This document shows, piece after piece, positions 11,857 to 64,000 of a stretch of DNA of 64,000 nucleotides (the first letter of the stretch is position 1; the number at the start of each line of letters is the position of its first letter). Both the position numbers and the translations under genes were made by a program. The stretch comes from Escherichia coli O157:H7 (lineage in GTDB: Bacteria; Pseudomonadota; Gammaproteobacteria; Enterobacterales; Enterobacteriaceae). A model generated the notes under the pieces. It had not been told where the DNA came from. It worked only from the letters and a program-made list of their open reading frames with translations, and ran no database searches. The DNA lies in NCBI RefSeq assembly GCF_013167455.1, contig NZ_CP038328.1. One strand, 5' to 3'.

Positions 11857-13413
11857 TTACCACTGCGGCGTATACGGTTTCTTCAGCCAGCGGACAAAAT
11901 CGTCCAGCGGTAACGGGCGACTAATCCAGTAGCCTTGCATGAAATTAACGCCGCGTTCGCTTAGCCATCGCGCCTGTTCCGGCGTTTCGACCCCCTCAGC
12001 AACCGTCAGCATATTGAGGCGTTTCGCCAGCGTCAGCACCGCGTCAAGTACGGGTGAAGTGATCGTTTCCGTACCGATGGCGTTGATAAATCCACGGTCA
12101 ATTTTCAGATAATCGAGCGTAAAACGCTCAAGATAGATAAGCGCGCTGTGCCCGGTGCCGAAGTCATCAATAGCAATTTCTACGCCGACCGAGTGCAGCC
12201 AGGCGAAGAGTTGTGTGGCTTCTTGCTCTTTCAGCATATCGCGCTCGGTAATTTCCAGCACAATCTGGAAATGGTGTGCGGGTAGGGAAGTGAGCAGTTT
12301 CTGGATATTTGCTTTAAAGCTTTCGCTGTGCAGATGGTCCGGCGCAATGTTAATGCCAAATTTGACGCCTACCGGCAGCACTTTTTCTAATTCTGCGGCA
12401 TCGCGGGCAATTAACTCAAACAGGTGCTGAGTCAGCGGCACAATCATCTTTTGCGATTCGGCAAAGTTAATGAAGGCATCCGGGGGAATTTCTCCCGCGA
12501 CAGGATGCCGCCAGCGTAGCAGTACTTCCAGGCCCGTTACTCGCAAAGCTTGTGTATCCACCACCGGTTGATACGCCACGTAAAATTGTTCGCGCTTGAT
12601 GGCGGTCATGATTTCTCTGCCGGGGCGCATACGTACGCTCATCAGGTAATAGCAGAGCAGGCCAACGACAGTTCCACTCATGCCGCCCAGTAAAAATGCG
12701 TACCACACATCGTTCCATGTCCAGTCATCTGCATAAAGCCGAACGGTCAGAGGAATGCCCGCAATTTTAGTTTCACGGACTGGCATGTCGGTTAATTCGT
12801 TAACGTTCATCAAACGTGAAGAAAAGGTAGATAGCGCAGTATTGCCAATAATGAGGGCGACGCCATCGTAATCTTCCTGCCGTGAGCTATAAAAGAGAGA
12901 AGGCGTCAGGTTGAGATTCAGAGCGGCAAAGACGCCGCTATTTTTCAGCAAAGGGTTGCGATACCAGATGACGATTGCGGGTTTGTTCGGCACCATCGGC
13001 GTGCCGGGTAAGATCGCCATATCGACATTTTTATTAATGTCGAGCGCAGGAATCAATTCATTGAGTGGAATGTCCATCTCACCGGTCGCAGATGAACAGA
13101 ATGTTTTTTTATCTTTCACCAGCACAAACGTTCGGACATTCATGCTAAACGCCGCGCGGGCGGTCAGTTCGGGGTTAGCTTGCTTGCATGTATCTAAGGT
13201 CAGCGGCTGGAGCCGGTCAGTAGTGGATTTCAGGTCGGCAAAATAGGTATCGAGATACTTTTGTACGTCGGTAATCAGTGTGTCGTATTTGACTTCGTGC
13301 TTATGCCAGGCCACTAAAAACTGAAGGCAGCTCACCAGTATCGCAATCATTACGCCTGCAACAATGCAGGTAAGCAGGAGCTTACGTCCAGAATTGGGAG
13401 CGCGTATGAACAT
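11857..13413 (-). CDS. rtn: EAL-domain c-di-GMP phosphodiesterase with periplasmic sensor domain (Rtn/PdeN)
   Basis: 518-aa ORF with two TM segments and C-terminal EAL domain (ELEKVLPVGVKFGINIAPDHL...). Confidence 0.88.
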   Translation of the reverse strand: MFIRAPNSGRKLLLTCIVAGVMIAILVSCLQFLVAWHKHEVKYDTLITDVQKYLDTYFADLKSTTDRLQPLTLDTCKQANPELTARAAFSMNVRTFVLVKDKKTFCSSATGEMDIPLNELIPALDINKNVDMAILPGTPMVPNKPAIVIWYRNPLLKNSGVFAALNLNLTPSLFYSSRQEDYDGVALIIGNTALSTFSSRLMNVNELTDMPVRETKIAGIPLTVRLYADDWTWNDVWYAFLLGGMSGTVVGLLCYYLMSVRMRPGREIMTAIKREQFYVAYQPVVDTQALRVTGLEVLLRWRHPVAGEIPPDAFINFAESQKMIVPLTQHLFELIARDAAELEKVLPVGVKFGINIAPDHLHSESFKANIQKLLTSLPAHHFQIVLEITERDMLKEQEATQLFAWLHSVGVEIAIDDFGTGHSALIYLERFTLDYLKIDRGFINAIGTETITSPVLDAVLTLAKRLNMLTVAEGVETPEQARWLSERGVNFMQGYWISRPLPLDDFVRWLKKPYTPQW

Positions 13414-53581: not shown

Positions 53582-54490
53582 CTAATTCTGCTGTAAAAAG
53601 TGCAGAAACTGACTTAAAGCATAAGAAGGCGTTTCGTTATTGCGCCAGAACACACCGACGCTACCTTTCTGTTCTATCTTTGGCAGGTTGAGTATCACCA
53701 GTTGTCCCTGGCTGGCATAACGTTGCGCCAGGCGTAATGACAAAATAGAGATCATATCGCTGCTTTGTAACAGGTTGGTACTGACGTTCATCGACGCCGA
53801 CTCAATCGTGTTTTCTGGCAGCATTACGCCGTGGTCTACCAGCGCATTATCAATACTAATGCGAATGGGGGTACCCGTCGGCCAGACGATCCAGCGCCAG
53901 TTGGCAAGATCATTCCAGCTGAGGGTGGCGTATTTCGCCAGTGGGTGCTCAGGGCGGGCGACAAAGCATACTGGCTCGGTGTACAGCACCTGATAATTCA
54001 GTGGCAGCTGCAATGCGCGACCGCCAATTCGCCCAACGACCACATCGACAGAACCGGCCAATAGATCTTGCAGCAATGGGGTCATCACCTTCTCTTCGAT
54101 ATTCAGGTGTAGAGTTGGCATCTTCGTAAGCAAATGCAAAATCGCCTGGGATACGCAGTCAGTGGCGACGGGAGAACAGCCAATTTTCAGACTGCCGACC
54201 AGTCCACCTTGTTTAAAACGGGCCAGTTCATGTTGCGATCGCTCCATGTCATTGATTAACCGTTGGGCATGTTGCAATAACAATTTGCCGCCTTCAGTCG
54301 GACGTAATCCTTTGCTGTGCCGCTCAAAAAGTGTGATTCCAATCTCATCTTCGAGTTGTGACAACCATTTCGAAAGCGCAGGTTGGGTGATATTCATCAT
54401 TCGTGCGACATGGGTTAGATTGCCCTGTTCACCCAGCGCCACCAGCATTTCAAGGTGATGTAGTTTTAATTTTTGCGCCCAGTTCGCCAT
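53582..54490 (-). CDS. mhbR: LysR-family transcriptional regulator of the gentisate cluster (MhbR-like)
   Basis: N-terminal HTH (LHHLEMLVALGEQGNLTHVARMMNITQPALSKWLSQLE); start placed at MANWAQ with GAGG RBS rather than the 16-codon longer ORF; divergent from the transporter gene. Confidence 0.8.
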   Translation of the reverse strand: MANWAQKLKLHHLEMLVALGEQGNLTHVARMMNITQPALSKWLSQLEDEIGITLFERHSKGLRPTEGGKLLLQHAQRLINDMERSQHELARFKQGGLVGSLKIGCSPVATDCVSQAILHLLTKMPTLHLNIEEKVMTPLLQDLLAGSVDVVVGRIGGRALQLPLNYQVLYTEPVCFVARPEHPLAKYATLSWNDLANWRWIVWPTGTPIRISIDNALVDHGVMLPENTIESASMNVSTNLLQSSDMISILSLRLAQRYASQGQLVILNLPKIEQKGSVGVFWRNNETPSYALSQFLHFLQQN

Positions 54491-54495
54491 TTGCC

Positions 54496-54511
54496 ATAAC
54501 CTCAAGGTTAT
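54496..54511. promoter_or_regulatory. LysR-type palindromic box in the mhbR/mhbT divergent promoter
   Basis: ataacc-tcaa-ggttat perfect inverted repeat of T-N11-A type between the divergent regulator and transporter genes. Confidence 0.45.
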
Positions 54512-54616
54512 CTCTCTGCCCGAAATGCCATTGTACATCTCATCTCTTTAATCACAATATCGCAACATATACAAAACAAAAGAAACATCTACCTTACCTG
54601 CACTGAGGCATTTACT

Positions 54617-55975
54617 ATGACTCAACGACGTGATTTACAAGCACTTATCGATGCTGCTCCGGTCGGCAAGATGCAGTGGCGCGTTATCATCTGCTGTTTT
54701 CTGGTGGTAATGCTCGATGGTTTTGACACCGCGGCTATCGGATTTATCGCCCCTGATATTCGCACTCACTGGCAACTCACCGCAGGCGATCTCGCCCCGC
54801 TTTTTGGCGCGGGTCTGCTAGGATTAACCGCAGGCGCACTGCTTTGTGGCCCGTTGTCCGATCGCTTTGGTCGCAAGCGGGTGATTGAGCTGTGCGTCTT
54901 TTTGTTTGGCGCGTTAAGCCTCGCCTCGGCTTTCTCACCGGATCTGCAAACGCTGGTCTTCCTGCGCTTTCTCACCGGCCTGGGTCTGGGCGGCGCGATG
55001 CCGAACACCATCACCATGACCTCGGAGTATCTGCCTGCCCGCCGCCGCGGCGCGCTGGTGACGCTGATGTTTTGCGGCTTTACGCTGGGTTCGGCGTTTG
55101 GCGGGATTGTCAGTGCGCAGCTGGTGCCGGTGATTGGCTGGCACGGCATTCTGGTGTTGGGGGGCGTGTTACCGCTGATGCTGTTTGTCGCACTGCTGGT
55201 AGTTCTGCCGGAATCGCCACGCTGGCAGGTGCGCCGCCAGCTACCGCAGGCGGTGATTGCGAAAACCGTCAGCGCCATCACCCGCGAGCGTTATGTCGAT
55301 ACCCACTTTTATCTCATTGAATCAGCCTCCGTTACAAAAGGCAGCATTCGTCAACTGTTTATGGGACGTCAGTTACCCATCACGTTGATGCTGTGGGTAG
55401 TGTTCTTTATGAGCCTGCTGATTATTTACCTGCTCTCAAGCTGGATGCCGACGCTACTGAACCATCGCGGCATCGACCTGCAACACGCGTCCTGGGTCAC
55501 CGCCGCGTTCCAGATTGGTGGTACGTTAGGCGCGCTGGCGCTGGGTGTGCTGATGGATAAGTTCAATCCTTTCCGCGTGCTGACGCTGAGCTATGCCATA
55601 GGCGCTATATGCATCGTGATGATTGGCTTAAGCCAGGATGGATTATGGTTGATGGCGCTGGCGATTTTCGGCACTGGCATTGGCATTAGCGGATCGCAGG
55701 TGGGGCTGAATGCGCTGACCGCAACACTTTATCCAACACAAAGTCGAGCCACGGGCGTGAGCTGGTCAAATGCTATCGGCCGCTGCGGCGCGATTGTTGG
55801 TTCGCTGTCTGGCGGCGTGATGATGGCGATGAATTTCTCTTTCGACACCCTGTTTTTCATTATCGCTGTGCCTGCGGCGATCAGTGCGGTGATGTTAACC
55901 CTGCTGATTACCGTGGTTCGCCAGTCGACCTCTGTCCCTGACTCACTGCCTCGCGCAGGCGTTGTGAACGAATAA
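54617..55975 (+). CDS. mhbT: MFS aromatic acid:H+ symporter (AAHS family), probable 3-hydroxybenzoate transporter
   Basis: 452-aa 12-TM ORF with MFS motif [11 protein letters not shown]. Confidence 0.8.
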
Positions 55976-55986
55976 GGAGCATCTCA

Positions 55987-57015
55987 ATGACTGATAACAA
56001 TCAAAATAGCCGCGAGCAATTTTATCAGCATATTTCCGGGCAAAACCTGACCCCGCTGTGGGAGTCACTGCACCATCTGGTGCCGAAAACGCCCAACGCT
56101 AACTGTGCGCCAGCGTACTGGAATTATCAGGAGATCCGCCCGCTGCTACTGGAGAGCGGCGGCCTGATTGGTGCGAAAGAGGCCGTGCGCCGCGTGCTGG
56201 TGCTGGAAAACCCGGCGCTGCGCGGGCAGTCTTCCATTACCGCGACTTTATATGCCGGTTTGCAACTGATCATGCCGGGCGAAGTGGCACCGAGTCATCG
56301 TCATAATCAGTCGGCGCTGCGTTTTATTGTTGAAGGCAAAGGGGCATTTACCGCCGTTGATGGCGAACGCACGCCAATGAATGAAGGCGATTTTATCCTG
56401 ACCCCGCAGTGGCGCTGGCACGATCACGGTAACCCTGGCGACGAACCGGTTATCTGGCTCGATGGGCTGGATCTGCCATTAGTGAATATTCTGGGCTGCG
56501 GTTTTGCCGAAGATTATCCGGAAGAGCAACAACCGGTAACGCGTAAAGAGGGAGATTATCTGCCGCGTTACGCTGCCAATATGTTGCCGCTGCGGCATCA
56601 GACGGGGAACTCCTCGCCGATCTTTAACTATCGTTATGACCGCAGCCGCGAAGTGCTGCACGATTTAACCCGACTGGGCGATGCCGACGAGTGGGATGGC
56701 TACAAAATGCGCTACGTCAACCCGGTCACCGGCGGCTATCCGATGCCGTCGATGGGCGCTTTCCTGCAACTGCTGCCGAAAGGGTTTGCCTCACGCGTTG
56801 CGCGTACCACTGACAGCACCATCTACCATGTGGTGGAAGGTAGCGGGCAGGTCATCATCGGCAATGAAACCTTCAGCTTTAGTGCAAAAGATATCTTCGT
56901 GGTGCCGACCTGGCATGGCGTGTCGTTCCAGACCACGCAAGATTCCGTTTTATTTAGTTTTTCGGACAGACCGGTACAAGAAGCCCTGGGGCTGTTCCGC
57001 GAAGCGCGTTATTAA
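55987..57015 (+). CDS. mhbD: Gentisate 1,2-dioxygenase (bicupin)
   Basis: 342-aa ORF with cupin His motifs ([13 protein letters not shown]...WRWHDHGN). Confidence 0.85.
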
Positions 57016-57029
57016 TTTAGGAGAGAAAA

Positions 57030-57731
57030 ATGACTCAATACGTATTCGAACCGCAAGCGCCCGTTACCGTACCGGTTGTTGGCAGTGATGAACAATTCCC
57101 CGTGCGCCGCGTTTACTGCGTCGGACGTAACTATGCCGCTCACGCCCGCGAAATGGGCTTTGATCCGGATCGTGAACCGCCATTCTTCTTCTGCAAACCG
57201 GCGGATGCCGTTGTTCCGGTTGCCGCTGGTGAAACGCTGGCGCTGCCGTATCCGGCACAGACCGATAACTACCATTACGAAATTGAACTGGTGGTGGCGA
57301 TTGGTAAAAAAGGCAGCGATATCCCGCTGGAACACGCCCATGAATATGTCTGGGGTTATGCCACGGGTCTTGATATGACTCGGCGTGACCGTCAAATGGA
57401 AATGCGCCAGATGGGCCGCCCGTGGGAAATCGGTAAAGCGTTTGATCTCTCAGCGCCCATCGCGCCGCTGCACAAAGCCCGCGATATCGGCGGTATTGAT
57501 AATGCGCCAATCTGGTTACAGGTTAACGGCGAAGATCATCAGCGCAGCGATATTCGCCATCTCATCTGGTCGGTGAATGAAACCATCTGCTATCTGTCAG
57601 GCTTCTTTGAGCTGCAACCGGGCGATCTGATCTTCACCGGTACGCCGGAAGGGGTTGGCCCGGTAGTGAAAGGTGATGTGATCACAGGCAACGTCGAGGG
57701 CTTAACGCCTATCGCGGTGAAGATTGTCTGA
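57030..57731 (+). CDS. mhbH: Fumarylpyruvate hydrolase (FAH family)
   Basis: 233-aa ORF of the fumarylacetoacetate hydrolase family; 14 bp after the dioxygenase gene. Confidence 0.8.
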
Positions 57732-57736
57732 GGTGC

Positions 57737-58384
57737 ATGATGAAGCTGTACAGTTTTTTTAATAGTTCAGCGTCGTACCGGGTACGCATTGCGCTGGCGC
57801 TGAAAGGCATTAATTACCAGACCGAAGGGGTGAATATCCGTATTGGTCAGCAAAATGAACTGGCCTATCGGCGGATGAATCCGGTCGGGCTGGTGCCGAC
57901 GCTGCTGACTGACGAGGGCGAATCACTCGGACAATCGCTGGCGATTATTGACTGGCTGGAGAGGCACTACCCGCAAGTTCCGCTGGTGCCGCAGGAAGAG
58001 CCGGCCCGCAACAAGGTGCTGGAAATTGTCTATGCCATCGCTTGTGATATTCATCCATTGAATAACTTGCGCGTGCTGCGCTACCTGACCGAAGAACTGA
58101 ACGTCAGTGAAGAAGAAAAAAAACGTTGGTATGCGCACTGGATCCAGCAAGGGTTAAGCGCGGTGGAACAACTGTTGCGCCAGAACCAGTCGGGGCAATT
58201 TTGTGTGGGCGAGACGCCGACGCTGGCAGATTGCTGCCTTGTCCCGCAGTGGGCGAACGCGCTACGCATGAACTGCGATTTGAGCGGGTATCCACGCTGC
58301 AAAGCGGTGTACGACGCCTGCACACAGCTGCCAGCGTTCATTGCCGCAGCGCCAGAAAATCAACAAGATAAAATTTCAGCCTGA
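57737..58384 (+). CDS. mhbI: Maleylpyruvate isomerase (GST zeta / maleylacetoacetate isomerase family)
   Basis: 215-aa ORF with GST N-terminal thioredoxin-like fold (MKLYSFFNSSASYRVRIAL). Confidence 0.8.
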   Translation: MMKLYSFFNSSASYRVRIALALKGINYQTEGVNIRIGQQNELAYRRMNPVGLVPTLLTDEGESLGQSLAIIDWLERHYPQVPLVPQEEPARNKVLEIVYAIACDIHPLNNLRVLRYLTEELNVSEEEKKRWYAHWIQQGLSAVEQLLRQNQSGQFCVGETPTLADCCLVPQWANALRMNCDLSGYPRCKAVYDACTQLPAFIAAAPENQQDKISA

Positions 58385-58398
58385 CCAGGAGAACTATA

Positions 58399-59592
58399 AT
58401 GACGAAAGTGACACGCGCAGTAATTGTGGGAGGCGGGATCGGCGGTGCGGCAACTGCGCTGTCACTGGCCCGCCTGGGGATCAAAGTGGTGCTGCTGGAA
58501 AAGGCGCATGAGATCGGTGAGATTGGCGCGGGCATCCAGTTGGGGCCAAATGCGTTTTCGGCGCTGGACAGCCTCGGCGTCGGCGAAGTTGCCCGCCAGC
58601 GCGCGGTGTTTACCGATCACATTACCATGATGGATGCGGTGAACGCCGAAGAAGTGGTGTGCATTGAAACCGGGCAGGCCTTTCGTGACCATTTCGGCGG
58701 CCCTTACGCGGTGATCCACCGGGTTGATATTCACGCCTCGGTGTGGGAAGCGGTACTGACGCATCCGGACGTGGAATATCACACCTCCACCAACGTCGTG
58801 GATATTCGCGAGACGGAAGACGATGTCACCGTGTTTGACGATCGCGGCAATAGCTGGACCGGCGATATTCTGATTGGCTGTGACGGCGTGAAGTCAGTGG
58901 TGCGCCAGAGCTTATTGGGCGATGCGCCGCGTGTCACCGGACATGTTGTCTACCGTGCGGTTATCGATCGTGCCGATATGCCGGAAGATTTGCGCATTAA
59001 CGCACCGGTACTGTGGGCGGGGCCGCATTGTCACTTGGTGCATTACCCTTTGCGCGGCGGCAAGCAGTATAACCTGGTGGTAACATTCCACAGCCGCCAG
59101 CAGGAAGAGTGGGGCGTGAAGGATGGTAGTAAAGAGGAAGTGCTCTCTTACTTTGAAGGGATTCACCCCCGTCCGCGCCAGATGTTGGATAAACCGACTT
59201 CATGGCGACGCTGGTCAACCGCTGACCGTGAACCGGTGGCGAAGTGGGGAACGAAGCGCATAACGCTTGTGGGCGATTCGGCCCATCCGGTGGCGCAATA
59301 TATGGCGCAGGGAGCCTGTATGGCGCTGGAAGATGCAGTAACGCTGGGTAAGGCGCTGGCGCAGTGTGAGGGTGATGCGGCGCAAGCCTTTGCGCTGTAT
59401 GAGTCGGTACGAATTCCGCGCACCGCGCGCATCGTCTGGTCGACCCGTGAAATGGGGCGGGTTTACCACGCCGCAGGGGTAGAACGCCAGGTACGTAATC
59501 TGCTGTGGAAAGGGAAATCGCAGGCAGAATTTTATCGCGGCATGGAGTGGTTGTACGGCTGGAAAGAAGATAACTGTTTGCAACCACGCTAA
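58399..59592 (+). CDS. mhbM: FAD-dependent 3-hydroxybenzoate 6-hydroxylase (flavoprotein monooxygenase)
   Basis: 397-aa ORF with GxGxxG FAD motif (VIVGGGIGGAATA) and salicylate hydroxylase-like core. Confidence 0.8.
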   Translation: MTKVTRAVIVGGGIGGAATALSLARLGIKVVLLEKAHEIGEIGAGIQLGPNAFSALDSLGVGEVARQRAVFTDHITMMDAVNAEEVVCIETGQAFRDHFGGPYAVIHRVDIHASVWEAVLTHPDVEYHTSTNVVDIRETEDDVTVFDDRGNSWTGDILIGCDGVKSVVRQSLLGDAPRVTGHVVYRAVIDRADMPEDLRINAPVLWAGPHCHLVHYPLRGGKQYNLVVTFHSRQQEEWGVKDGSKEEVLSYFEGIHPRPRQMLDKPTSWRRWSTADREPVAKWGTKRITLVGDSAHPVAQYMAQGACMALEDAVTLGKALAQCEGDAAQAFALYESVRIPRTARIVWSTREMGRVYHAAGVERQVRNLLWKGKSQAEFYRGMEWLYGWKEDNCLQPR

Positions 59593-59751
59593 GCACTTCT
59601 TCACCCAATCAGGCGCACGGGCGGTCCCCTCGCCCCTTCGGGAGAGGGTTAGGGTGAGGGTAAAAATCTTGCCCGAATTAATCAGTAAGTCAGTTTGTCT
59701 GCAAACACAGGAGGCGCTAACATAGCGCCTCATTTTTTTGCGGGTGATGAT

Positions 59752-60702
59752 ATGCGTGTGTTACTGGCTCCGATGGAGGGAGTGCTTGACTCTCTGGTGC
59801 GTGAATTGCTGACCGAAGTTAACGACTACGATCTGTGCATCACCGAGTTCGTCCGCGTGGTGGATCAACTGCTGCCGGTGAAAGTCTTTCATCGCATTTG
59901 CCCTGAGCTACAAAACGCCAGCCGGACACCATCCGGTACGCTGGTGCGCGTGCAGTTGTTGGGTCAGTTCCCACAATGGCTGGCAGAGAACGCCGCCCGT
60001 GCGGTGGAATTAGGTTCCTGGGGCGTGGATCTCAATTGCGGCTGCCCGTCGAAAACGGTTAACGGTAGCGGTGGTGGGGCGACGTTACTCAAAGATCCTG
60101 AACTCATCTACCAGGGGGCAAAAGCGATGCGTGAAGCTGTACCGGCGCATTTGCCCGTCAGCGTGAAAGTGCGTCTGGGCTGGGACAGCGGTGAGAAGAA
60201 ATTTGAAATCGCCGATGCGGTTCAACAGGCTGGTGCTACGGAGCTGGTGGTGCATGGACGGACAAAAGAGCAGGGTTACCGCGCGGAGCATATTGACTGG
60301 CAGGCGATTGGCGAGATTCGCCAGCGGCTGAATATTCCGGTGATTGCCAACGGCGAAATCTGGGACTGGCAGAGCGCGCAAGAATGCATGGCGATCAGCG
60401 GCTGCGACTCAGTGATGATTGGTCGCGGGGCGCTCAATATTCCCAACCTGAGCCGGGTAGTAAAATATAACGAACCGCGAATGCCGTGGCCGGAGGTGGT
60501 TGCTTTGCTGCAAAAATATACCCGTCTGGAAAAGCAGGGCGATACCGGGTTATATCACGTAGCGCGGATTAAACAGTGGTTGAGTTATTTGCGTAAAGAA
60601 TACGATGAAGCAACAGAATTATTTCAGCATGTTCGTGTGTTGAATAATTCCCCTGATATTGCAAGGGCTATTCAGGCAATTGATATCGGTAAGCTGCGAT
60701 AA
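59752..60702 (+). CDS. dusC: tRNA-dihydrouridine(16) synthase DusC
   Basis: 315-aa product from [14 protein letters not shown]; track ORF has a 19-codon upstream extension. Confidence 0.9.
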
Positions 60703-61089
60703 TAGTGGAATCGCAGTTTATCAGAAACAATGAATCGCTTATTCAGCTTCATCATCTTGTTGCGCTCCTTTCATGAGCTAAGCCACATATTGCCACTGGC
60801 GCAAGGAGCGCGCAGGGGGAGGACAATCGCCTCCTCCCCCTGCACCCCCGGGCTCTGGCGAACAAAATCGCCGCTGCGCGGTACCTTCAGCTTATCCCCT
60901 TCGGCTACCGGGTCGGGCGCGAGGAAACGTCCTTGTAAGACGCGCCCTCAGCCCACATCCATGTGGGCTGCCCCGGCCTTCGGGGAACGCTTCAGCGATT
61001 TTGACGCCACCAACACCGGAGCTGTTTGCAAATCAAGTACACAAAATATCTAGTTCCTGACCTGACAACTTATATGTCATATCTGATTT

Positions 61090-61173
61090 TTAAAATATCA
61101 TCTTAAATACGCCAGTCACCACCAGTAGCCCAATCAGGAAAATAATCAATACAGCCCAGAGTATAATTTTCAT
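61090..61173 (-). CDS. yohP: 27-aa single-TM small membrane protein YohP
   Basis: Manual translation of the minus strand gives MKIILWAVLIIFLIGLLVVTGVFKMIF then stop; below the ORF-track size cutoff; weak RBS (aaaggaacgccaATG). Confidence 0.6.
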   Translation of the reverse strand: MKIILWAVLIIFLIGLLVVTGVFKMIF

Positions 61174-61396
61174 TGGCGTTCCTTTATTTGTGAGTGCTGA
61201 ATAAGTATAGGAAAAAACGAAGCCCTTTGCCGTTATCCATAAACGATTAAGATAAATCGGAAGATATCATTCACTTAGTGTATATTTTTCTGGATATGTC
61301 GTTTTATTGCTACTGATGTATTGCCACGCGAAACTAAAAAATATATCGCAACACACGGTAATCTCCGCGCACCTTTTCTTACCTGATTATTCCCCC

Positions 61397-62833
61397 ATGA
61401 ATCGTGATTCCTTTTATCCAGCCATCGCCTGTTTTCCGCTGTTACTGATGCTGGCCGGGTGTGCGCCTATGCATGAAACCCGCCAGGCGTTAAGCCAGCA
61501 AACGCCCGCTGCACAAGTTGACACCGCATTACCCACGGCGCTGAAAAATGGTTGGCCAGACAGCCAATGGTGGCTGGAGTATCACGATAATCAACTCACT
61601 TCCTTAATTAACAATGCACTACAGAACGCACCGGATATGCAGGTGGCTGAACAGCGCATTCAGTTAGCTGAAGCCCAGGCGAAGGCAGTTGCTACTCAGG
61701 ATGGTCCGCAGATCGACTTTTCTGCGGATATGGAGCGGCAAAAAATGTCGGCAGAAGGGCTAATGGGGCCGTTTGCTCTGAACGATCCGGCCGCAGGTAC
61801 GACCGGTCCGTGGTACACCAACGGAACTTTTGGCTTAACGGCGGGCTGGCATCTCGATATCTGGGGAAAGAATCGGGCGGAGGTTACTGCCCGCCTGGGT
61901 ACGGTTAAAGCACGGGCGGCGGAACGCGAGCAAACCCGCCAATTGCTGGCTGGCAGCGTAGCCCGCCTGTACTGGGAGTGGCAAACCCAGGCGGCGTTAA
62001 ACACGGTCTTGCAGCAAATCGAAAAAGAGCAGAACACCATTATCGCGACCGATCGCCAGCTATATCAGAACGGGATTACTTCTTCAGTTGAAGGTGTGGA
62101 AACCGATATTAATGCCAGCAAAACCCGGCAGCAGCTCAACGATGTCGCGGGGAAAATGAAAATTATTGAGGCACGGTTAATTGCACTCACAAATCACCAG
62201 ACTAAGTCATTGACGCTTAAACCGGTGGCGTTGCCGAAAGTGGCAAGCCAGCTTCCTGATGAACTGGGGTACTCCTTACTGGCCCGGCGGGCAGATTTGC
62301 AGGCGGCGCACTGGTACGTTGAGTCATCGCTAAGCACCATTGATGCGGCAAAAGCGGCATTTTATCCTGACATCAACCTGATGGCCTTCCTGCAACAGGA
62401 TGCGTTGCACTTAAGCGATCTGTTCCGTCATTCCGCGCAGCAAATGGGCGTTACGGCAGGCCTGACGCTACCCATTTTCGATAGTGGTCGTCTTAACGCC
62501 AATCTCGATATCGCAAAAGCCGAAAGCAACTTGTCTATCGCCAGCTACAACAAAGCGGTGGTTGAAGCGGTGAATGACGTGGCGCGGGCAGCCAGTCAGG
62601 TTCAGACACTGGCGGAGAAAAACCAGCATCAGGCGCAAATTGAGCGCGATGCCTTGCGTGTGGTAGGTCTTGCGCAGGCCCGCTTTAACGCGGGCATCAT
62701 TGCTGGTTCCCGCGTCAGCGAAGCCAGAATCCCCGCGCTGCGTGAGCGGGCCAATGGCCTGTTATTGCAAGGGCAGTGGCTGGATGCCTCCATTCAACTC
62801 ACTGGTGCGTTGGGCGGGGGTTACAAACGCTGA
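61397..62833 (+). CDS. mdtQ: Outer membrane efflux lipoprotein (OMF/NodT family), apparently intact MdtQ
   Basis: 478-aa product from MNRDSFYPAIACFPLLLMLAGC (lipobox LAGC); continuous reading frame with no internal stop. Confidence 0.8.
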   Translation: MNRDSFYPAIACFPLLLMLAGCAPMHETRQALSQQTPAAQVDTALPTALKNGWPDSQWWLEYHDNQLTSLINNALQNAPDMQVAEQRIQLAEAQAKAVATQDGPQIDFSADMERQKMSAEGLMGPFALNDPAAGTTGPWYTNGTFGLTAGWHLDIWGKNRAEVTARLGTVKARAAEREQTRQLLAGSVARLYWEWQTQAALNTVLQQIEKEQNTIIATDRQLYQNGITSSVEGVETDINASKTRQQLNDVAGKMKIIEARLIALTNHQTKSLTLKPVALPKVASQLPDELGYSLLARRADLQAAHWYVESSLSTIDAAKAAFYPDINLMAFLQQDALHLSDLFRHSAQQMGVTAGLTLPIFDSGRLNANLDIAKAESNLSIASYNKAVVEAVNDVARAASQVQTLAEKNQHQAQIERDALRVVGLAQARFNAGIIAGSRVSEARIPALRERANGLLLQGQWLDASIQLTGALGGGYKR

Positions 62834-62885
62834 TGATATGTGACTTCTATACTTAACGTTTATTCAGCGTTAAGTGGAGAACTCG

Positions 62886-63647
62886 ATGGCACAGGTAGCG
62901 ATTATTACCGCCTCCGATTCGGGGATCGGCAAAGAGTGCGCGTTATTACTGGCGCAGCAAGGGTTTGATATTGGCATTACCTGGCACTCAGATGAAGAAG
63001 GGGCAAAAGATACCGCGCGTGAGGTAGTTAGCCACGGCGTACGTGCGGAGATCGTGCAACTGGATCTCGGCAATCTGCCAGAAGGTGCGCAGGCGCTGGA
63101 GAAACTTATTCAACGGCTGGGGCGTATTGATGTGCTGGTGAATAATGCGGGCGCAATGACCAAAGTGCCGTTTCTTGATATGGCTTTCGATGAGTGGCGC
63201 AAGATTTTTACCGTTGATGTCGATGGTGCATTTTTATGCTCGCAAATTGCTGCCCGCCAGATGGTGAAACAAGGACAGGGTGGTCGCATCATCAACATTA
63301 CGTCGGTACATGAACATACGCCGCTGCCGGATGCCAGCGCCTACACAGCCGCTAAACATGCGCTCGGCGGGTTAACCAAAGCAATGGCGCTGGAGTTGGT
63401 CAGGCATAAGATTTTGGTGAACGCAGTCGCACCTGGGGCGATCGCTACGCCAATGAACGGCATGGATGATAGCGACGTGAAGCCCGACGCGGAGCCTTCG
63501 ATTCCTCTGCGGCGTTTTGGCGCAACGCATGAGATTGCCAGCCTGGTGGCGTGGCTTTGTTCGGAGGGCGCAAATTACACCACCGGGCAGTCGTTGATAG
63601 TGGATGGCGGCTTTATGTTGGCGAATCCGCAGTTCAACCCAGAATAG
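62886..63647 (+). CDS. yohF: Short-chain dehydrogenase/reductase YohF
   Basis: 253-aa product from MAQVAIITASDSGIGKECA (TGxxxGxG Rossmann motif), GGAGA RBS; track ORF starts at an upstream GTG. Confidence 0.88.
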   Translation: MAQVAIITASDSGIGKECALLLAQQGFDIGITWHSDEEGAKDTAREVVSHGVRAEIVQLDLGNLPEGAQALEKLIQRLGRIDVLVNNAGAMTKVPFLDMAFDEWRKIFTVDVDGAFLCSQIAARQMVKQGQGGRIINITSVHEHTPLPDASAYTAAKHALGGLTKAMALELVRHKILVNAVAPGAIATPMNGMDDSDVKPDAEPSIPLRRFGATHEIASLVAWLCSEGANYTTGQSLIVDGGFMLANPQFNPE

Positions 63648-63684
63648 CGCAGTGAGGTGTGTGGATATTTCAATGGGTAAAATT

Positions 63685-63770
63685 TTGGTAGGCATGATAA
63701 GACGCACAAGCGCCGCATCAGGCATGGTGAACCGGATGTCGGATGCGGCGCGCACGCCTTATCCAGGGCA
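63685..63770. repeat. Pair of REP elements (BIME) between yohF and yohD
   Basis: ggcatgataagacgcacaagcgccgcatcaggcatg and ccggatgtcggatgcggcgcgcacgccttatccagg in inverted orientation. Confidence 0.65.
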
Positions 63771-63776
63771 ATGGTT

Positions 63777-64000
63777 TTACGCCTGATTATCCGGCTTTTT
63801 CTTCCCGCGTCGTTTCAGCCACCAGCGCACGCCTACCACCAGAACCACGACCAGAATCAACCAGACCCAGTGCTTCAAATGCTGGTCGAGATTGTGCAAC
63901 CACGGCGCAATCACCTGACCACCAGCGTAACCGATAGTGGTAAAAATCAACGCCCAGGCAAATGCGCCGAGAATATTAAGCGGCAGAAAGATTTTCGGCG
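63777..64000 (-). CDS. yohD: DedA-family inner membrane protein YohD, C-terminal part (5' end lies beyond the window)
   Basis: Minus-strand frame ends ...VRWWLKRRGKKKPDNQA then stop (stop complement at 63777-63779); hydrophobic upstream codons; no start within window. Confidence 0.7.
   Translation of the reverse strand, partial: PKIFLPLNILGAFAWALIFTTIGYAGGQVIAPWLHNLDQHLKHWVWLILVVVLVVGVRWWLKRRGKKKPDNQA

Follow-up and report, generated by a model that had tools for sequence, protein, structure and literature searches.

Escherichia coli O157:H7 very probably carries the ancestral, intact allele of the outer membrane factor gene mdtQ

The chromosome of Escherichia coli O157:H7 very probably carries mdtQ (formerly yohG) in its ancestral, intact form and, with it, a complete outer membrane factor (OMF) gene; we put the probability of this reading at about 0.9. 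mdtQ is one of the four TolC-like OMF genes of E. coli. In the window, a 64-kb stretch of the O157:H7 chromosome, the mdtQ (yohG) coding sequence occupies positions 61397..62833 (+ strand), as judged from its open reading frame, from family models and from identity to O157:H7 mdtQ. The frame opens with an ATG at 61397, comprises 478 sense codons with zero internal stops and closes with a TGA that ends at 62833. Both the ORF listing and the raw sequence bear out the uninterrupted 478-codon frame at 61397-62833 that an earlier note on this DNA had described. Over the 2001 nt compared, the mdtQ DNA is 100% identical to that of O157:H7 genomes, in which RefSeq labels the gene mdtQ (WP_001078131.1). 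It is the same gene as E. coli mdtQ/yohG (NF008524, WP_001078131.1), and nothing differs from the O157:H7 reference. Compared to O157:H7 strain PV15-279, the window shows a few SNPs and small indels, all of which lie outside mdtQ. AF-Q8X659 is, as we assume, the O157:H7 UniProt entry of MdtQ. The AlphaFold model under this accession has been used for MdtQ before (PMC11762307). The intact gene found here is real, ordinary and already known from the RefSeq annotation, from AF-Q8X659 and from a 2025 TolC review, which lists mdtQ as a conserved part of the E. coli core genome even though the gene is annotated as a pseudogene.

The encoded protein begins with a lipoprotein signal peptide (61397..61462, + strand), which was read from the sequence and ends in the lipobox L-A-G-C. 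Its N-terminus is MNRDSFYPAIACFPLLLMLAGC, where the LAGC pointed out earlier is found as L19-A20-G21-C22, with the TGT codon of Cys22 at 61460-61462 and an Ala at +2. The column of Cys22 is invariant in an alignment of 105 OMF sequences, and Cys22 is predicted to form the acylated first residue of mature MdtQ. While an Asp at position +2 leads to retention of lipoproteins in the inner membrane, the Ala of MdtQ predicts sorting to the outer membrane. Mechanically, the in-frame ORF extends further upstream to TTG 61307 (508 aa) and ATG 61316 (505 aa). We rejected an N-terminal extension from either codon, as this stretch carries TAA or indels of 1-2 nt in Salmonella, Citrobacter, E. albertii and E. 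whittamii. Because the upstream frame is broken in other genera and the MdtQ model aligns over 1-478 of 478 positions, we take 61397 as the real start. A conserved upstream ORF was rejected as well: it would read MYCHA-stop in Salmonella and Citrobacter, has no stop at this point in E. coli and lies in another frame in Buttiauxella.

By its sequence, MdtQ is an outer membrane factor lipoprotein of the NodT subfamily. The MdtQ equivalog model NF008524 scores 1023.8 bits (cut-off 650) and covers residues 1-478 of its 478 positions, and the NodT model TIGR01845 scores 274.7 bits (cut-off 210.05) over residues 16-475, in agreement with the full-length OMF/NodT-like protein that had been proposed. 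Pfam OEP (PF02321; family TC 1.B.17) matches MdtQ in two stretches (E 3.5e-30), the best of which comprises residues 69-266. As scored by these models, the match of MdtQ to the OMF family is far beyond chance. Membership in MdtP (NF007390) was discarded, as the score of 355.1 bits lies under the equivalog cut-off of 597 and indicates a paralogue rather than a member; the same holds for the TolC family proper (TIGR01844), for which 53.1 bits were obtained at a cut-off of 225.15. Within the 105-sequence alignment, MdtQ carries the consensus residue at all 6 invariant and all 31 near-invariant columns. The earlier note had named a loss of conserved OMF residues as the observation that would speak against its reading, and we found 37/37 of the invariant or near-invariant residues kept. 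The C-terminal ALGGGY is conserved, with G473 being invariant and L468, A471, L472, G474 and G475 being near-invariant.

We employed an AlphaFold2 monomer prediction as the structure of MdtQ and compared its fold to the PDB by Foldseek. The model (pLDDT 89.3, pTM 0.85) contains four strands and two long helical hairpins, which form two repeats of two strands and one hairpin each. The first structural repeat (~residues 58-265; 61568..62191, + strand) was delimited by the AlphaFold2 model and the Pfam OEP stretch and consists of helices, the β-strands 105-116 and 139-153 and a long helical hairpin (158-224/230-265). The second (~residues 292-471; 62270..62809, + strand), as judged from the AlphaFold2 model and Foldseek, contains the β-strands 325-336 and 348-357 and a long helical hairpin (365-431/437-471), after which the ALGGGY motif follows. 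The top matches in Foldseek were VceC, CmeC, CusC, SilC and OprM/N/J with E-values of ~1e-23 to 1e-20 and target-normalised TM-scores of 0.72-0.89 for the leading ones, and the top 44 PDB matches were all OMFs. The MdtQ protomer is thus predicted to adopt the full OMF architecture.

Among the known systems, MdtP (YjcP), the outer-membrane part of MdtNOP, represents the closest E. coli paralogue family and is an acylated NodT-type OMF like MdtQ, which has itself been placed among the acylated E. coli OMFs (bioRxiv 10.1101/2025.03.19.644130). The mdtP gene resides in an operon with those of an adaptor and a pump. By contrast, mdtQ is a solitary gene, and neither an adaptor nor a pump is encoded within several kb to its left or right. 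VceC from Vibrio cholerae (PDB 1YC9) is the closest solved chain by sequence (2.2e-39, MdtQ residues 51-477). By fold (E 1.2e-23, target-normalised TM 0.85, ~25% identity) it shows the same two-repeat OMF protomer. VceC is encoded together with its pump genes and, unlike the VceC gene, mdtQ is an orphan. The fold is also common to OprM, OprN and OprJ from Pseudomonas and to CusC, SilC, CmeC and MtrE (E ~1e-22, TM 0.72-0.89). Such OMF lipoproteins of RND pumps, which have defined RND partners and substrates, are 18-24% identical to MdtQ and share with it the N-terminal lipidated Cys (predicted in MdtQ) and the motifs R298, D300, P324, L358-P359, F361 and G473-G475. TolC of E. coli is built like MdtQ overall and is presumed to act as an exit duct as well. 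Since tolC is likewise unlinked to pumps, the OMF family does not demand linkage to the genes of a pump. However, TolC is more distant from MdtQ (Foldseek E about 1e-15 to 1e-14, 12-13% identity), represents the dominant duct in E. coli and is not lipidated (bioRxiv 10.1101/2025.03.19.644130).

Judging from these relatives, the MdtQ precursor would be exported by Sec, lipidated at Cys22 by Lgt, LspA and Lnt and carried by Lol to the outer membrane. There, a trimer would form a 12-stranded β-barrel and a long periplasmic α-helical tunnel, as in OprM, CusC and VceC. By the same analogy, MdtQ would dock with a periplasmic adaptor and an inner-membrane transporter, and substrates would be expelled across the outer membrane. 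We infer that MdtQ serves as a functional outer-membrane efflux exit duct. Regarding its partner, the nearest paralogue model (MdtP) and the nearest structure (VceC) presumably both belong to non-RND pumps, i.e., MdtNOP and the EmrAB-like VceAB, which weakly favours a partner of the non-RND type.

MdtQ might, however, be a working duct whose natural role is not drug efflux, so that the name 'multidrug resistance' would be misleading; export of an endogenous metabolite, for instance aromatic carboxylic acids, via a non-RND pump or service to a secretion system might be such roles. VceC, the closest solved structure, has an EmrAB-like MFS pump as its partner. Among paralogue models, that of MdtP (355 bits) comes closest, and the mdtP gene shares an operon with those for the adaptor MdtN and the inner-membrane pump MdtO according to the 2025 review, which also states that the function of MdtQ has not been elucidated. 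Moreover, the drug phenotypes are reported as slight (PMC9241588). On the other hand, our analysis pointed to no substrate or partner for such a role, and the 3-hydroxybenzoate/gentisate genes in the neighbourhood are catabolic, lie apart from mdtQ and are absent in K-12 and MRE162, so that their linkage to mdtQ may be coincidental. We regard a role outside drug efflux as rather unlikely and retain the efflux exit duct as the preferred assignment. The original work on the susceptibility of a yohG deletion reportedly used K-12. Drug-susceptibility phenotypes of 'mdtQ null mutants' are cited in the 2025 TolC review; should this work have used K-12, the phenotypes would be hard to reconcile with a gene that is frameshifted in that strain.

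Comparing the DNA upstream of mdtQ across genera revealed a deeply conserved, promoter-like box, TGTATTGCCAC-N6-CTAAAA (61317..61339, + strand). The box begins 80 nt before the mdtQ ATG (77-80 nt in other genera) and is found at the same distance 5' of mdtQ in Escherichia, Salmonella, Citrobacter, Phytobacter and Buttiauxella. It is invariant in E. coli, Salmonella and Citrobacter and differs at one position in E. albertii, whereas the intergenic DNA around it cannot be aligned. A 60%-identical metagenomic mdtQ orthologue has also retained it, and it occurs once in the 64-kb window. This pattern suggests a candidate binding site for a transcription factor. Furthermore, an in-register comparison of 29 upstream regions yielded TAATCT (61359..61364, + strand) as a candidate -10 hexamer, located exactly 18 nt past the 20-nt box region and kept as TAnnnT in every genus. 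With this candidate -10, transcription would start near 61371 and produce a leader of ~26 nt, placing the centre of the box ~40 nt upstream of the predicted start. Expression of mdtQ probably depends on the conserved box and the -10 element. A simple sigma-70 scan detected no canonical -35/-10 pair between yohP and mdtQ; TTGCCA and TAAAAA were rejected as such a pair, being just 8 nt apart. A Shine-Dalgarno sequence is absent before the mdtQ ATG (CCCCCATG), which suggests low or conditional expression.

To find further members of a possible regulon, we scanned 100,044 species genomes for exact occurrences of the box. Of the 63 loci obtained, ~30 are enterobacterial by our reading, with one per genome. 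In 14 of them, we confirmed that the start of a lipoprotein fitting MdtQ follows 77-80 nt downstream; for the rest, this start was read off aligned upstream regions. The remaining loci are scattered over unrelated phyla, and their number is close to the chance expectation, ~35 by our own estimate. The scan of these genomes returned no second target of the box and no clue to a partner pump.

The box was also compared to a marbox, defined here as 20 nt in forward orientation with the core GCAC-N5-RYYAAA, which overlap the -35 region and lie ~18 nt from the -10 (class II). The spacing rule between marbox and -10 is 18-19 nt. In mdtQ, the core would be CCACGCGAAACTAAA at 61324-61338; counting the two trailing positions of the marbox, 18 nt separate it from TAATCT downstream. 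Its first letters are CCAC, as in the mar operon's own site CCACGATTTGCTAAA. A class II soxbox is centred at -41.5 (PMC9638938). With a weight matrix derived from 87 sites of Salmonella ChIP-seq, the box scores 5.0-7.2 bits, compared to a median of 11.5 for the sites themselves, and 354 of the 127,972 15-mers in the window score as well. No ChIP-seq peak of MarA, SoxS, Rob or RamA is listed between yeeY and ompC, the interval in which we take yohG to map, and mdtQ, yohG and yohP are absent from the supplements of two regulon papers. The geometry of a marbox regulon promoter fits, but owing to the poor matrix score and the lack of a listed peak we retain it as no more than a low-probability idea.

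Combining these elements, we tentatively suggest that mdtQ may encode a conditionally expressed, fully functional, TolC-independent duct, transcribed via an activator that would bind at TGTATTGCCAC-N6-CTAAAA; this extended proposal is possible, but we would not yet rely on it. Nearly all efflux genetics of E. coli has been carried out in K-12. If the proposal of a conditional duct is true, the pump, the substrates and the regulator of MdtQ would have been missed systematically, because this work used a frameshifted strain. The conserved upstream box offers a concrete starting point toward the regulator of mdtQ.

mdtQ is under strong purifying selection, with a dN/dS of 0.035-0.07 between genera and a piN/piS of 0.07 within E. 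coli. Together with the conserved residues and the predicted structure, this evidence points to the intact allele being a working gene. We consider it quite improbable that the ORF is intact but cryptic, silent or drifting to loss, in which case O157:H7 would gain nothing real over K-12. A silent gene would fit the missing Shine-Dalgarno sequence and canonical promoter, the promoter being unconfirmed according to the 2025 TolC review, as well as the dominance of TolC in E. coli efflux. It would also fit the repeated, independent loss or damage of the gene: K-12 has its frameshift, MRE162 has an IS1-linked deletion, several E. coli alleles lack 24-58 residues in frame, and the gene is truncated or damaged in some isolates of S. 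Typhi and Paratyphi A (PMC9241588); in some settings such as these, mdtQ is evidently dispensable. However, the dN/dS and piN/piS values show a protein maintained by selection, every family-invariant residue is retained, and silence would not preserve the upstream box and its spacing from Escherichia to Buttiauxella. Moreover, Salmonella yohG transcripts are detectable and inducible, being increased in a mutant selected with ciprofloxacin and upon exposure to hypochlorite (PMC5381912, PMC9065344).

The intact frame of O157:H7 stands against a disrupted one in K-12. The earlier note had described mdtQ of K-12 as a disrupted pseudogene, and b2139 of NC_000913.3 is indeed annotated as a pseudogene of 1436 nt; the same 1436-nt gene is flagged 'frameshifted' by RefSeq in the genome of a K-12-type laboratory strain. 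Pairwise alignment with K-12, which had been proposed as a check, located a 1-nt deletion in the A-run at 61544-61548 (+ strand; codons K50 AAA and N51 AAT), which is A5 in the window and A4 in K-12. The loss of this A from codons 50-51 is the sole lesion of MG1655 b2139, which is frameshifted rather than intact and co-linear. Its frame ends after residue 69 and gives a 69-residue product, and the earliest possible start in the downstream frame is Met81, without the signal peptide. Besides the deletion, 17 substitutions separate K-12 from the window, 14 synonymous and 3 non-synonymous, the latter corresponding to I262S, H267N and T273K in O157:H7 relative to b2139. Homopolymers such as the one that differs here (A5 versus A4) are classically prone to sequencing errors. 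Even so, an artefact of assembly or sequencing that hides a true K-12 frameshift in this strain has a negligible probability and is already refuted by the genome counts, as the identical A5 80-mer occurs in 3046 independently assembled complete genomes, the A4 form occurs in 355, of which the 40 best-ranked all look like K-12-type laboratory strains, and orthologues from other genera use the same reading frame.

Within the species, the mdtQ region was found in 5423 of 5426 genomes. The 355 exact matches to the K-12 allele (79-mer with A4) were obtained among 5407 complete E. coli genomes, and, beyond the exact matches to the window allele (80-mer with A5), the sampled remainder consisted of 80-nt substitution variants. 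mdtQ is annotated as intact in 10/10 other sampled E. coli genomes, also BL21(DE3). Intact mdtQ is the norm in the species as well as in neighbouring genera, and K-12 is the exception. The earlier inference of a functional channel that K-12 lacks holds insofar as the gene is intact, under selection and has kept its residues and fold; to say that 'this strain retains' it is an understatement, as K-12 is the outlier. As a discovery, intact mdtQ matters little; its practical value lies in the caution that K-12 is not representative for this gene, and negative or odd results on mdtQ from K-12 consequently say little about the species. MdtQ is the last uncharacterised outer-membrane duct of E. coli, and assigning its function needs a strain with the intact allele or a repaired K-12.

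E. albertii, Salmonella and Citrobacter have mdtQ orthologues of 478-479 aa, which occupy the same genomic neighbourhood. O157:H7, K-12 and Salmonella share the order dusC-yohP-mdtQ-yohF-yohD-yohC-pbpG-dld, and Citrobacter and E. albertii show the same order with yohP and/or yohF absent or not called. O157:H7 mdtQ is thus orthologous to and syntenic with K-12 b2139. The 3-hydroxybenzoate/gentisate genes lie near mdtQ, with dusC and yohP in between; in K-12 and MRE162 they are missing while other neighbours persist. No intrinsic terminator was found between mdtQ and yohF; the only hairpin there, at 62852-62874, has 7 bp and lacks a T-run, so that co-transcription with yohF is possible. An Rfam E-value scan of 59000-64000 identified no known RNA family in the leader or the flanks; it returned a sub-threshold naRNA4/REP-like match after yohF and a chance-level TwoAYGGAY match inside a TRIP1c repeat.

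The mdtQ gene (formerly yohG) runs on the plus strand from an ATG at 61397 to a TGA ending at 62833 and comprises 478 uninterrupted sense codons, as judged from both the ORF listing and the raw sequence. Its product begins with MNRDSFYPAIACFPLLLMLAGC and carries a lipoprotein signal peptide with an L-A-G-C lipobox, in which Cys22 (codon 61460-61462) is followed by Ala. Pfam OEP (PF02321) matched MdtQ in two stretches (E = 3.5e-30), the NodT-type outer membrane factor (OMF) model TIGR01845 scored 274.7 bits (cut-off 210.05), and the curated MdtQ model aligned residues 1-478 to model positions 1-478; under the MdtP and TolC models, the protein scored below both cut-offs. Over the 2-kb mdtQ region, identity to E. 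coli O157:H7 chromosomes is 100%; the RefSeq annotation of those chromosomes has mdtQ (WP_001078131.1) flanked by yohP and yohF. Against O157:H7 strain PV15-279, only a few SNPs and small indels turn up across the full 64 kb, and mdtQ contains none of these differences. Judging from the sequence, the family assignments are unambiguous and 61397-62833 encodes MdtQ itself rather than a relative. The finding of an intact mdtQ is ordinary and already known, the exact protein being present in RefSeq.

In E. coli, the frame stays open 5' of the mdtQ start, with an ATG at 61316 (505 aa) and a TTG at 61307 (508 aa), and at least one database entry, the related MdtQ protein P0006, is called from this upstream TTG. 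Salmonella, Citrobacter, E. albertii and E. whittamii carry interruptions or frameshifts in the N-terminal extension (61307-61396), which is probably an annotation trap. Because it is not conserved in other genera and the MdtQ model aligns from residue 1, the annotated start at 61397 is correct.

We then compared the gene with its K-12 counterpart b2139, which the earlier note had held to be disrupted. In NC_000913.3, b2139 is annotated as a pseudogene of 1436 nt, and RefSeq labels the same 1436-nt gene 'frameshifted' in a K-12-type laboratory-strain genome. Global alignment with the window gene yielded 17 substitutions and one gap, a single A missing in K-12 from the AAAAA at 61544-61548 (codons K50 AAA and N51 AAT), so that the K-12 gene is not an intact, co-linear copy of mdtQ. 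Past the deletion, the K-12 frame continues as LKMVGQ and ends after residue 69, and the earliest possible start in the downstream frame is Met81, which comes without a signal peptide; K-12 is therefore unable to make exported MdtQ. Putting the A back restored a clean 478-codon ORF with 14 synonymous and 3 non-synonymous changes (I262S, H267N, T273K) relative to the window, and the K-12 lesion looks single and recent. A 2025 YohP paper also names 'the mdtQ pseudogene' in K-12. The observation of an intact gene here and a damaged one in K-12 is thus confirmed.

A 47-nt stretch (62181-62227, codons 262-277) holds eight of the 17 substitutions, among them all three that change an amino acid, and residues 262-276 account for 6 of the 19 variable MdtQ residues among 12 E. 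coli alleles. Codons 262-277 run from the last part of helix 230-265 into the unstructured linker (266-291) that joins the two repeats of the protein; the stretch may reflect a loop under relaxed constraint or a short tract of recombination. A mirror image of the mdtQ case inside one serotype is pdeN (11857-13413, minus strand), an intact 518-codon ORF in the window that is labelled 'frameshifted' in the near-identical PV15-279, from which it differs by 6-nt and 1-nt indels at 12239-12244 and 13126.

Among 5426 complete E. coli genomes, 5423 contain the mdtQ region. With the A-run at its centre, an 80-nt probe for the window allele matched exactly in 3046 complete genomes and the corresponding K-12 79-mer in 355; the best 40 of these 355 all look like K-12-type laboratory strains (MG1655, C600, DH5alpha, J53 and NEB 5-alpha among them), while other probe matches, when sampled, were 80-nt substitution variants. 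In ten genomes taken at even steps along the identity ranking, mdtQ translated without stops (10/10), and in all ten, as well as in BL21(DE3), mdtQ is annotated at 1437 nt and has a protein accession. In strain MRE162, a deletion adjoining an IS1 element has removed mdtQ and yohF; E. coli alleles in the protein database (P0004, P0006, P0008, P0013, P0020 and P0025) show independent in-frame deletions of 24, 25, 36, 43 and 58 residues, the 43-residue allele being seen on 43 contigs. According to a published survey (PMC9241588), mdtQ has also been truncated independently in a few isolates of S. Typhi and Paratyphi A. An intact mdtQ is the rule and its loss sporadic; evidently, the gene is dispensable in some E. 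coli lineages. Full-length orthologues of 478-479 aa occur in E. albertii (94% identity), Salmonella (81%) and Citrobacter (80-81%).

Nei-Gojobori estimates gave a dN/dS of 0.035-0.07 in all informative comparisons. Within E. coli (12 alleles), piN/piS was 0.07, with 58 codons polymorphic at synonymous sites only and 19 changing the amino acid. We aligned MdtQ with 104 homologues, down to ~25% identity. Six columns were invariant (C22, P79, R298, P324, P359 and G473) and 31 were at least 90% conserved; the window protein keeps the consensus residue at 37/37, and no conserved OMF residue has been lost. An AlphaFold2 model built on the homologue alignment (mean pLDDT 89.3, pTM 0.85) displays two repeats, each consisting of two beta-strands and a long helical hairpin, as expected for an OMF. 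Significant Foldseek matches in the PDB were OMFs only, with VceC, CmeC, CusC, SilC, OprM, OprN, OprJ and MtrE at E-values of about 1e-23 to 1e-20, whereas TolC and its homologues matched more weakly (about 1e-15). Our analysis shows mdtQ in this strain to be intact, orthologous, constrained and fold-complete, and supports the suggestion that a functional efflux channel may be retained.

By its family, MdtQ would be exported via Sec, lipidated at Cys22 and, with Ala at +2, carried by Lol to the outer membrane, where it would trimerise into a barrel plus tunnel and act as exit duct of a tripartite pump. Annotation of the neighbourhood revealed no adaptor or transporter gene near mdtQ. The nearest paralogue family is MdtP of MdtNOP, and the nearest solved chain by sequence is VceC, whose partner is an EmrAB-like pump; both hint at a non-RND partner, which we take only as a lead. 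In practical terms, K-12 is the wrong strain for studying mdtQ. The original susceptibility study of mdtP and mdtQ null mutants was reportedly done in K-12, and if so, its phenotype is hard to ascribe to MdtQ because of the frameshift. A 2025 TolC review cites slight hypersusceptibility of both mutants and describes mdtQ as independently encoded, its function as not elucidated and its promoter as unconfirmed. In Salmonella, yohG transcript levels go up in a mutant selected with ciprofloxacin and on exposure to hypochlorite (PMC5381912, PMC9065344).

No Shine-Dalgarno sequence precedes the mdtQ ATG, where the sequence reads CCCCCATG. The 20 nt before the ATG (61376-61396, plus strand) are pyrimidine-rich (CTTACCTGATTATTCCCCC), and the region is C-rich in all orthologues (CCCACATG, CCTCCATG, TCTCCATG). 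The absent Shine-Dalgarno suggests a weak or unconventional translation initiation.

A simple promoter scan 5' of mdtQ returned nothing canonical. E. coli, Salmonella and Citrobacter all carry the block GATGTATTGCCACGCG(A/T)AACTAAAAAA unaltered, and E. albertii departs from it at one position, although synonymous sites in mdtQ are saturated and the rest of the surrounding intergenic DNA is unalignable between genera. The pattern TGTATTGCCAC-N6-CTAAAA (61317-61339, plus strand) is even retained in a 60%-identical metagenomic orthologue. Scanning one genome per species across bacteria and archaea yielded 63 loci. By our reading, about 30 are enterobacterial, one per genome (Escherichia, Salmonella, Citrobacter, Phytobacter, Buttiauxella and one metagenome bin labelled Raoultella); the others are scattered over unrelated phyla in roughly the number expected by chance (about 35 by our own estimate). 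An MdtQ-like lipoprotein start lies 77-80 nt past the box in 14 enterobacterial loci by pattern search, and the other enterobacterial loci share the same ATGAATCG start in aligned upstream regions. In every enterobacterial case, exactly 18 nt separate the end of the 20-nt site from TA(A/C)(T/C)CT, which keeps the -10 positions T1, A2 and T6; in the window, this candidate -10 is TAATCT (61359-61364, plus strand). From Escherichia to Buttiauxella, the box sequence, the spacing and the 77-80 nt to the ATG are all preserved. Transcription would start near 61371 and place the box centre near -40.5, where activator sites that overlap the -35 region are located; a class II soxbox at -41.5 has been described (PMC9638938). 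In our view, the box is a real, conserved cis element and candidate binding site of a factor, which offers a route towards mdtQ regulation.

The box core CCACGCGAAACTAAA resembles a marbox and, like the site of the mar operon itself (CCACGATTTGCTAAA), opens with CCAC; its geometry fits class II. On a weight matrix from 87 bound Salmonella sites (ChIP-seq), it scored 5-7 bits against a median of 11.5, and 354 other 15-mers in the window score as high. We take yohG to lie between yeeY and ompC on the map. The published list has no ChIP-seq peak for MarA, SoxS, Rob or RamA in that interval, and the supplements of two published regulon studies do not mention mdtQ/yohG. Judging from the poor score, the 354 equal 15-mers and the missing peak, a marbox is improbable. 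On the yohP strand, the good marbox-like 15-mer GCACTCACAAATAAA (61183-61197, minus) reached 12.7 bits on the same matrix; it stops 9 nt short of the yohP start codon, too close for a class I/II activator site, and about ten sites in the window score similarly, so it may be chance.

Downstream, 52 nt (62834-62885) separate mdtQ from yohF (ATG 62886). Since this gap is short and its 7-bp hairpin (62852-62874) lacks a T-run, the two genes may be co-transcribed. After mdtQ, yohF is absent in Citrobacter and E. albertii, and in one of the E. coli genomes sampled it is interrupted by a stop codon. Between yohF and yohD, a REP-like palindrome (63691-63768) matched Rfam naRNA4 (RF02564) on both strands, its 51.4 bits falling short of the 59.5-bit gathering score. 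Upstream, between dusC and yohP, lies a TRIP1c repeat (60746-61033), present at a median of 3 and up to 8 places per E. coli genome. It explains a spurious 107-aa ORF (60730-61053) and a chance-level TwoAYGGAY Rfam match (60865-61004), and such repeats are substrates for chromosomal rearrangements (PMC10888264). E. albertii, Salmonella and Citrobacter share the order gentisate cluster, dusC, (yohP), mdtQ, (yohF), yohD, yohC, pbpG and dld. In the window, this 3-hydroxybenzoate/gentisate catabolic cluster (53582-59592, between yohJ and dusC) encodes a LysR regulator, mhbT, gentisate 1,2-dioxygenase, an FAH-family hydrolase, maiA and 3-hydroxybenzoate 6-monooxygenase. It is missing in K-12 and MRE162, where dusC sits directly beside yohJ; its presence in the three relatives suggests an ancestral cluster that some E. 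coli have lost.
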